Below, one piece after another: positions 40,282 through 40,885 of a stretch of DNA of 64,000 bases (the first letter of the stretch is position 1; each line of letters opens with the position of its first letter). The DNA is from Bacteroidota bacterium. Lineage in GTDB: Bacteria > Bacteroidota > Bacteroidia > Bacteroidales > WCHB1-69. Made by a program: the position numbers and the translations under genes. A model generated the notes under the pieces. It searched no databases and had not been told where the DNA came from. It saw only the letters and a program-made list of their open reading frames with translations. The stretch is from positions 4,959 to 68,958 of the forward strand of contig JBAXTE010000001.1 in NCBI GenBank assembly GCA_037130365.1, given 5' to 3'.

Positions 40282-40304
40282 AATTATTTGATTTATTATT
40301 CCAA

Positions 40305-40850
40305 TTATAATTCAGCCACAGCTCTTTTAAATGCCTCACCCCTAGCTTCATAGTTTTCGTACATATCAAAGCTAGCACATGCTGGAGAGAGCAAAACAAT
40401 ATCGCCTTTGTTTGCCCGATAATATGCTCTCAACACTACCTCATCCATAGATTCTGATTCTGAAATATCATCAATAATATCAGAAAATGCTTCAACAATC
40501 GTGTGTTTATCTTTACCTAGACAGATGATTGTTTTCACTTTTTCTTTCACAATATCGCGAAGTTGGCTAAAATCGGTATTAGTCTCGACACCTCCAACAA
40601 TCCATATTACAGGACGATTCATAGACTCCAAACCAAACCATGTAGCATTTACTTTTGTCGCTTTTGAATCGTTAATAAAATCGATACCTCTTACTGTAGT
40701 TACAAATTCTAAACGATGAGCTTCATTGTTAAAATCGAATAGACTTTCACGAATTCGATCTTTTCTAACATCCAACAACCGTGAATGTAAGGATGCTGCC
40801 AATGTTTTTTGACTTCTTGTTCCTTGTAATGCAATGCTTTCGATACTCAT
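40305..40850 (-). CDS. murD: MurD C-terminal domain only (truncated murD; possible pseudogene remnant)
   Basis: 181 aa matching only the last ~175 residues of MurD (HRLEFV..GIDFINDSKATKVNAT...LLSPACASFDMYENYEARGEAFK). There is no P-loop and no N-terminal Rossmann domain. An in-frame stop at 40872-40874 and the mraY stop at 40886 leave no room for the missing ~270 residues. Confidence 0.7.
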   Translation of the reverse strand: MSIESIALQGTRSQKTLAASLHSRLLDVRKDRIRESLFDFNNEAHRLEFVTTVRGIDFINDSKATKVNATWFGLESMNRPVIWIVGGVETNTDFSQLRDIVKEKVKTIICLGKDKHTIVEAFSDIIDDISESESMDEVVLRAYYRANKGDIVLLSPACASFDMYENYEARGEAFKRAVAEL

Positions 40851-40885
40851 AGTTTTGTAATTGAGATGTAATTAATATTAGGTAG

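Follow-up and report, generated by a model that had tools for sequence, protein, structure and literature searches.

A conserved, stand-alone C-terminal fragment of MurD at the place of murD in the dcw cluster of a Bacteroidia lineage

The window, by which we mean the whole 64-kb stretch of DNA that was analyzed (64,000 nucleotides), comes from an anaerobic Bacteroidia MAG with a GC content of 33.6%. It carries a dcw cluster in the order mraZ, rsmH, ftsL, ftsI, murE, mraY, [murD-C], ftsW, murG, murC, ftsQ, ftsA and ftsZ, which is complete except at the place of murD. There, 604 nt on the minus strand separate the mraY stop (40886-40888) from the ftsW start (40281), and the single ORF in this gap encodes 181 aa (40850-40305, minus strand); these coordinates, reported in the first-pass annotation of the sequence, hold on re-reading. 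The TAA of mraY occupies 40888-40886, and a spacer of 35 nt leads to the ATG of the 181-aa ORF at 40850-40848, which ends in a stop at 40307-40305 and is followed, after 23 nt, by the ATG of ftsW at 40281. The in-frame stop seen earlier above the ATG (40874-40872) is indeed present and is accompanied by a second one at 40880-40878. By its position between mraY and ftsW the ORF stands where murD stands in a dcw cluster; directly upstream of it there is no full-length murD, mraY being found there instead, and it is the sole murD-derived ORF at the window locus. The features of the locus are:

32775..47969, minus strand: dcw cluster, otherwise complete
40886..42139, minus strand: mraY, intact, 417 aa, upstream neighbour
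40851..40885, minus strand: AT-rich spacer of 35 nt with two in-frame stops (relatives have spacers of 25-57 nt)
40305..40850, minus strand: stand-alone MurD C-terminal fragment, 181 aa, assigned by profiles, AF2 model and Foldseek
39091..40281, minus strand: ftsW, intact, 396 aa, downstream neighbour

The 35-nt spacer is the scar of the deletion that took murD codons 1 to about 265. Two other accounts of the gene's structure were rejected: a fusion to MraY through read-through or frameshifting is ruled out by the spacers of 25-57 nt, the differing frames and the stops inside, and a split intein by the fact that the product begins straight with MurD sequence. A scan for sigma-70 promoters and terminators, using a model ill-suited to Bacteroidia promoters, returned nothing above chance.

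Elsewhere, the window and its flank encode an aldehyde:ferredoxin oxidoreductase, a hybrid-cluster protein and type IX secretion cargo. The flank just outside the window (L094:1-9000, at about 197-206 kb of CAZNZE010000001.1) bears a lysine-fermentation gene set, comprising a lysine 2,3-aminomutase-like radical SAM protein, KDD, BKACE, an aminotransferase and a CoA transferase, with two 23S rRNA-intervening-sequence-protein genes interspersed and a DarT gene at the edge. A 633-aa protein encoded at 26414-28315 of the window (plus strand) combines collagen triple-helix repeats with a phage-depolymerase-like C-terminal beta-sandwich and adjoins CHU_C (type IX secretion) proteins. Within the dcw cluster, FtsI/PBP3 (43581-46076, minus strand; 831 aa) carries a PASTA domain and ends, at its C-terminus, in a tail of ~90 aa with a very high content of Lys, Thr and Ser. 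The rsmH gene was called as 260 aa, i.e. without the SAM-binding GGGGH motif; its frame is open upstream of the called start (window 47320-47430, minus strand; also L011:3440-3530, in a related locus), running through YHNPVLL...VTFGGGGHS, and this upstream frame has no ATG, GTG or TTG, with a CTG three codons before the Tyr-His kept in both the window and L011. Reading of the frame makes a non-canonical start likely for rsmH, so that the gene would not be truncated, and we set aside its apparent truncation as an artefact of start-codon calling.

Profile searches define what is left of MurD. Pfam detects only Mur_ligase_C (PF02875), at aa 45-158 (E 2.3e-12; 48.3 bits versus a gathering score of 28.4), and the NCBIfam model TIGR01087 (murD) matches over its positions 265-440 of 441 with 179.2 bits, which is under its cutoff of 211.95. 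The first ~265 codons of murD are missing, in agreement with the loss of ~0.8 kb estimated previously. The span of the profile match implies that the fragment slightly exceeds domain 3, as it also retains the final strand-helix of the central domain. The product corresponds to about residues 266-447 of a 447-aa Bacteroidia MurD and comprises this strand-helix, the hinge and domain 3. The initial description of the locus is correct, including its statement that the N-terminal and P-loop ATPase domains are absent. Neither the N-terminal Rossmann-like UDP-MurNAc-L-Ala-binding domain (PF21799/PF21377) nor the central ATPase domain (PF08245), with its P-loop G-x-N-G-K-(S/T), could be found in the 181-aa ORF, and a tblastn search of the whole 64-kb window with the N-terminal and ATPase parts of MurD as the query matched MurC and MurE only. 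These two flanking ligases, noted before to keep the domains in question, are complete (MurC: TIGR01082, 388 bits; MurE: NF001126, 609 bits) and score as a true MurC and a meso-DAP-type MurE. In the AF2 model, pLDDT is 81-95 for aa 46-181 and below 50 for aa 1-45, and the best Foldseek match of the model is domain 3 of the MurD 7u35 (rmsd 1.5-1.7 A over ~142 columns). Compared with solved MurDs, the C-terminal domain is homologous at 34-37% identity and an rmsd of 1.5-2.3 A. Given this domain content, the product is predicted to be incapable of acting as a ligase on its own.

The identical protein is encoded on six contigs, four of them of 0.2-1 Mb, with the 207,691-bp NCBI MAG contig CAZNZE010000001.1 (GCA_964577495.1), in which the window lies, and the Logan assembly of run SRR12676970 among the sources. 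Eleven more clusters, defined at 90% identity and drawn from NCBI, JGI, ENA and Logan, came up in a homology search at 69-82% identity to the window protein, and all 12 clusters (69-100% identity) show an intact ORF of 181/182 aa. Loci L005-7, L011 and L092-93 have the same architecture, with the gene placed 28-57 nt after mraY and before ftsW; hence the comparison of synteny with relatives that the first-pass annotation called for finds the order mraY, fragment, ftsW shared by the loci read. A metagenome scan with the window protein (P0001) gave a best match of 54% identity and no clade members, and among the matches listed for the pattern NDSKAT there was likewise no clade member in 80 sampled Bacteroidia genomes, the closest of which, again among the matches listed, has an MraY of 71% identity.

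The fragments of L005/L011 share 69% of their residues with that of the window, to be compared with 68.5% for MurE, 66-72% for MurG, 61-65% for MurC, 70-77% for FtsW and 88-89% for MraY. Its dN/dS (Nei-Gojobori; dS saturated) is ~0.12, next to 0.11 for MurE, 0.10 for MurG and 0.09 for FtsW. Neither of the marks of a pseudogene, a broken frame or a dN/dS near 1, was found: the frame is intact in 12/12 clusters, without stops or frameshifts in the window-clade fragment at 31% protein divergence, and invariant motifs are spread across aa 29 to 181. The gene had at first been taken for an assembly collapse or a pseudogene remnant, with a stand-alone domain-3 protein ranked as less likely. The occurrence of the identical protein in more than one source and of a same-length ORF in the relatives contradicts the former, and purifying selection like that on the neighbouring genes contradicts the latter; conservation and selection support the stand-alone protein instead. 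On this comparative evidence, we consider it very probable that the fragment is a functional stand-alone protein.

The reduction is not confined to one clade: to judge from the sequences, the same fragment arose independently in at least four lineages, namely the window clade and at least three more within the Bacteroidia. All four start at the same internal Met, a residue conserved among the full-length MurDs of Bacteroidia and present even in that of Streptococcus (3LK7 residue 267). First, P0050/P0069 (L008-10, GC 34%) shows the arrangement mraY, 25 nt, 182-aa C fragment, ftsW, and nests among Lentimicrobiaceae with full-length murD. In its nearest relatives, the loci L050 (from a Lentimicrobium MAG) and L095 (P0134), murD is full-length and occupies its canonical position, and L095 has the same flanking genes as L008-10. 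The ratio of C-part divergence on the truncated P0050 branch to that between the full-length relatives is 1.76, as against 1.0-1.56 for six neighbours. Second, P0018 (L100 and two other ENA assemblies, GC 31%) displays murE, mraY, a 65-aa ORF, a 182-aa C fragment and ftsW; relative to its full-length sister P0218 (L099) it has 40 nt in place of 640 nt, i.e. a ~600-nt internal deletion. The 65-aa ORF is degenerate: MurD residues 1 to ~45 run directly into the ~15 residues that precede the internal Met, and its stop overlaps the ATG of the fragment. In this lineage the C part evolves with a dN/dS of 0.06 and ftsW with one of 0.085, against 0.54 for the 65-aa remnant. Third, P0371 (L101, GC 39%), which is not close to any other locus, has mraY, 33 nt, the C fragment and ftsW.

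A profile search of 1.84 billion cluster representatives yielded many more clusters of 175-190 aa in which the protein starts at this Met and the G-K-H-N-x-x-N motif is degenerate; for one of them the genomic context was fully read. The many 182-aa matches at 55-59% identity could suggest a huge stand-alone family, a notion we rejected, as most of them are probably fragments of full-length MurD that start at the internal Met (P0080, for example, is the C end of P0115). Consequently, only those cases whose genomic context was read have been counted.

In the P0032 species, two distinct lesions break murD a short way upstream of this Met (L001:5870-5945 and L003:1000-1075), an extra T causing a frameshift in a 3.5-Mb JGI contig and a TGA for TGC in an Illumina ENA contig; a third contig of this species ends 42 nt before the Met. 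The lesions may reflect errors in sequencing, or else murD may genuinely tolerate being split there. The former locus also has ftsI and murE as one ORF of 1187 aa (L001:382-3945) that covers PBP dimerisation, transpeptidase, PASTA and three Mur ligase domains, and is either a natural FtsI-MurE fusion or the result of a lost stop in a long-read assembly.

Isolated C parts of MurD also occur next to the complete gene. Full-length murD is present in 80/80 sampled Bacteroidia loci (among the matches listed), and in about 25 of these 80 a gap of 370-1058 nt separates it from ftsW. At 13 of the 80 loci the gap contains an ORF matching the MurD-C profile (E 1e-22 to 1e-68), with two copies in L013. 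Ten more loci, from Crocinitomicaceae, Fluviicola and related organisms, have a gap ORF of 150-170 aa with no Pfam match, and hhalign places these in register with MurD-C (probability 82.6%, E 1e-5), making them probable remote MurD-C derivatives. Altogether, roughly one in four of the 80 sampled genomes carries an additional ORF derived from MurD-C in the interval from murD to ftsW. Examples from among L012-L091 are:

L016:10550-11116, extra MurD-C copy
L081:2417-3001, extra MurD-C copy
L013:10549-11607, extra MurD-C copies
L026:753-1236, extra MurD-C copy

Each extra copy is nearer to canonical C parts than to other extra copies, and no described family for these ORFs was located in Pfam or in the literature searched. 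Their location beside full-length murD indicates that isolated MurD-domain-3 proteins persist there despite a working MurD. A different arrangement is seen in a Chitinophagales MAG (L071:10549-13598), where murD and ftsW lie 3 kb apart with a complete mraY-like ORF (426 aa) between them; no mraY was found upstream of murD, and the gene order therefore appears to be rearranged.

To see which residues survive in the isolated domain, we compared 12 window-clade sequences with 12 canonical ones in E. coli MurD numbering; the E. coli sequence used for numbering agrees with the coordinates from the PDB search. The following motifs of the fragment are the relevant ones:

40803..40823, minus strand: GTRSQKT (aa 10-16), a degenerate G-K-H-N-x-x-N central-domain motif in which Asn268 and Asn271 are replaced
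40707..40718, minus strand: HRLE hinge motif (aa 45-48; His301, Arg302, Glu304), invariant
40656..40673, minus strand: NDSKAT (aa 60-65; Asn316, Asp317, Ser318, Lys319, Thr321), invariant in the clade
40569..40595, minus strand: GGVETNTDF (aa 86-94), the decayed GGVDKGNDY loop of the D-Glu-binding Lys348
40365..40388, minus strand: SPACASFD (aa 155-162; Ser415 region), conserved

In MurD, ADP is contacted by Gly114-Thr117, Asn271, Arg302 and Asp317, and D-Glu by Thr321, Lys348, Ser415, Leu416 and Phe422 (PMC9780078). Among the D-Glu-site residues, Thr321, Ser415 and Tyr422 are kept in 12/12 clade sequences and Lys348, which is absent in the window, in 3/12. Also retained in 12/12 are His301, Arg302, Glu304, Asn316, Asp317, Ser318 and Lys319, as well as Asp417, Arg425 and Gly426. 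Entropy in the Lys348 loop reaches 1.9-2.3 bits in the clade, whereas the canonical sequences are invariant there. The alignment confirms that GTRSQKT replaces the usual central-domain motif, as the first-pass annotation had it: the window has Ser and Lys/Thr at the positions of Asn268 and Asn271, two residues that to our knowledge are invariant across the Mur family. The H, N and N of the motif are present in 12/12 canonical sequences, as opposed to 1/12 (His267), 3/12 (Asn268) and 1/12 (Asn271) in the window clade. At equal mean identity of the two sets (0.719), the clade exceeds the canonical set in entropy over aa 1-15 and 87-120 and falls below it over aa 31-45, 136-150 and 166-180. As for the other lineages, P0050/P0069 have lost His267, and one of the two has lost Asn271; P0018 retains all catalytic residues; and the extra copies beside murD are yet more degenerate. 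From these patterns the decay appears to begin in the central-domain remnant and then to reach the Lys348 loop.

The best reading of the locus, in which we place moderate confidence, is that it encodes a repurposed, non-catalytic MurD domain-3 protein that came into being after an old deletion in murD. This deletion removed codons 1 to ~265, and with them the UDP-MurNAc-binding and P-loop ATPase domains, leaving the remainder of murD to be read from the conserved internal Met, 35 nt after mraY. The resulting 181-aa product is a real protein under purifying selection that would perform no D-Glu ligation by itself. Residues required solely for catalysis, i.e. Asn268 and Asn271 of the ATP site and the D-Glu-binding Lys348 loop, have decayed in the window clade, and the hinge helix, the helix at aa 136-150 and the C-terminal helix are now under stronger constraint. 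Beyond the observed deletion, conservation, recurrence and shift in constraint, we infer a non-catalytic role in the window clade, on account of the loss of catalysis-only residues, the constraint shift and the precedent of the extra copies: the fragment may now serve the precursor or division machinery by way of binding, scaffolding or regulation. It might thereby share the role of the extra MurD-C proteins that lie between an intact murD and ftsW in many relatives, and D-Glu ligation would be encoded elsewhere in the genome, perhaps by a murD that was relocated or is of foreign origin.

Some of the comparative data speak against such a repurposing. The ATP- or D-Glu-contacting R302, D317, K319, T321, S415 and Y422 stay invariant in the alignment, and the younger lineages keep all or nearly all catalytic residues, with their constraint almost unchanged; this retention, both in the clade and in the younger lineages, would also fit a domain that still works at a ligase active site. 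Further, repurposing needs a second murD elsewhere, and four independent lineages each needing one is not parsimonious.

Hence, we also considered a MurD in two pieces, with a gene for the N-terminal and ATPase parts elsewhere in the genome and the 181-aa protein docking in trans as a D-Glu-binding lid, which we judge to be possible though rather unlikely. Such a lid would account for the invariance of the domain-3 residues contacting ATP and D-Glu in the window clade and for the retention of catalytic residues, all in P0018 and most in P0050, by younger lineages whose C parts evolve almost as those of full-length proteins (the ratio of 1.76 versus 1.0-1.56 and the dN/dS of 0.06 given above). 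The retained last strand-helix of the central domain could complete the sheet of the partner, and the interruption of the P0032 murD just upstream of the same Met, by two lesions in two assemblies, is also in line with a split at this point. However, if the strand-helix completed the ATP site of a partner, Asn268 and Asn271 would stay essential, yet the window clade has lost both and P0050/P0069 has also lost them in part; Lys348, too, is lost in the window clade. None of the truncated loci read has a gene for the N-terminal or ATPase part within 10 kb, and neither the 64-kb window nor the ~10 kb of flank read on one side of it contains one. A database search with the N part of Lentimicrobium brought up only full-length proteins or contig-edge fragments, the closest match being P0134, which lies in a canonical dcw cluster. 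In P0018 the N part decayed in place, and a query with the N-terminal and ATPase parts of P0218 against a collection of 5.8 billion sequences found nothing above 67% identity, despite the truncated P0018 locus having been assembled at least five times. The decay of Asn268/Asn271, the lack of a partner nearby and the in-place decay of the P0018 N part together weaken the case for two pieces.

Alternatively, the N-terminal and ATPase domains of MurD might be absent from the whole genomes, which we think improbable. This would be in keeping with at least four independent losses of the N-terminal and ATPase part, with the failure to find a vertically related copy for the P0018 lineage, and with the retention of MurC and MurE that score as true MurC and MurE. 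Against it, nothing in the window suggests salvage genes, and we know of no such D-Glu route in Bacteroidia. The fuller version, in which this absence is genome-wide and the C domain is the surviving half of a non-canonical D-Glu addition, is slightly more doubtful again; it could operate, for instance, through a trans amino-acid-binding lid swapped onto another Mur ligase or through L-Ala-D-Glu salvage. If this were true, not all bacteria that make peptidoglycan would use the textbook pathway of four ligases.

It is very improbable that the ORF is retained only for reasons at the level of DNA or translation, such as an internal promoter or coupling to ftsW, with a functionless protein. The ORF does lie inside an operon, and in most of the truncated lineages that were read ftsW follows it at a distance of 3-27 nt (211 nt in L011), but selection acts at the amino-acid level along its whole length (dN/dS 0.06-0.12, with the invariant motifs at aa 29-181), and a cis-element would constrain a short stretch only rather than hold the frame open at 69% protein identity. 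Lastly, an assembly collapse or a recent pseudogene remnant, to which the loss of two of three domains and the degenerate catalytic motif might point, is next to impossible in view of the six contigs from more than one source and of the open, selected frame of the same length in divergent relatives.

MurD counts as an essential enzyme and as a drug target, and the literature searched yielded no account of a murD that is split, truncated or missing. A murD cut to its C-terminal domain, under purifying selection, with at least four origins and in an otherwise complete operon, would surprise a cell-wall specialist, and the extra copies kept beside an intact murD argue for the isolated domain 3 having a role of its own. 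The names in the databases, 'cyanophycin synthetase' at NCBI and 'UDP-N-acetylmuramoylalanine--D-glutamate ligase' at JGI (for cluster members and relatives), both fail to fit a domain-3-only protein. There may also be a practical consequence: if murD (TIGR01087) is among the marker genes in common use for phylogeny and for assessing how complete a genome is, these lineages would be scored as short of one marker.

When set beside known systems, the window gene shares with canonical MurD the mraY-ftsW position and the HRLE, NDSKAT and SPACASFD motifs; unlike it, it has no UDP-MurNAc-binding and P-loop ATPase domains, no Asn268, Asn271 or Lys348, and scores below the family cutoff. The extra MurD-C ORFs resemble it in being stand-alone and 150-200 aa long, in stemming from the same portion of MurD and in lying at the same locus; in them, too, the Lys348 loop and the ATP-site motif have decayed in a similar way. 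They differ in having a full-length murD immediately upstream, whereas the window gene is the only murD-derived ORF, and the latter is 57% identical to canonical MurD versus 33-49% to the extra copies. Natural fusions and rearrangements of Mur ligases, e.g. MurE-MurF, are likewise domain- and gene-architecture variants within dcw clusters (PMC10214165). Those fusions join complete enzymes; the window gene instead misses two of three domains. Foldseek also returned weak matches of the model to the plastid RNA polymerase chains 8qma_O and 8ras_Q. The plant plastid MurE-like protein is a subunit of the plastid RNA polymerase, and hence provides a precedent for a Mur-ligase fold retained in a non-enzymatic structural role, though as an analogy only, being eukaryotic, full-length and part of an unrelated complex.
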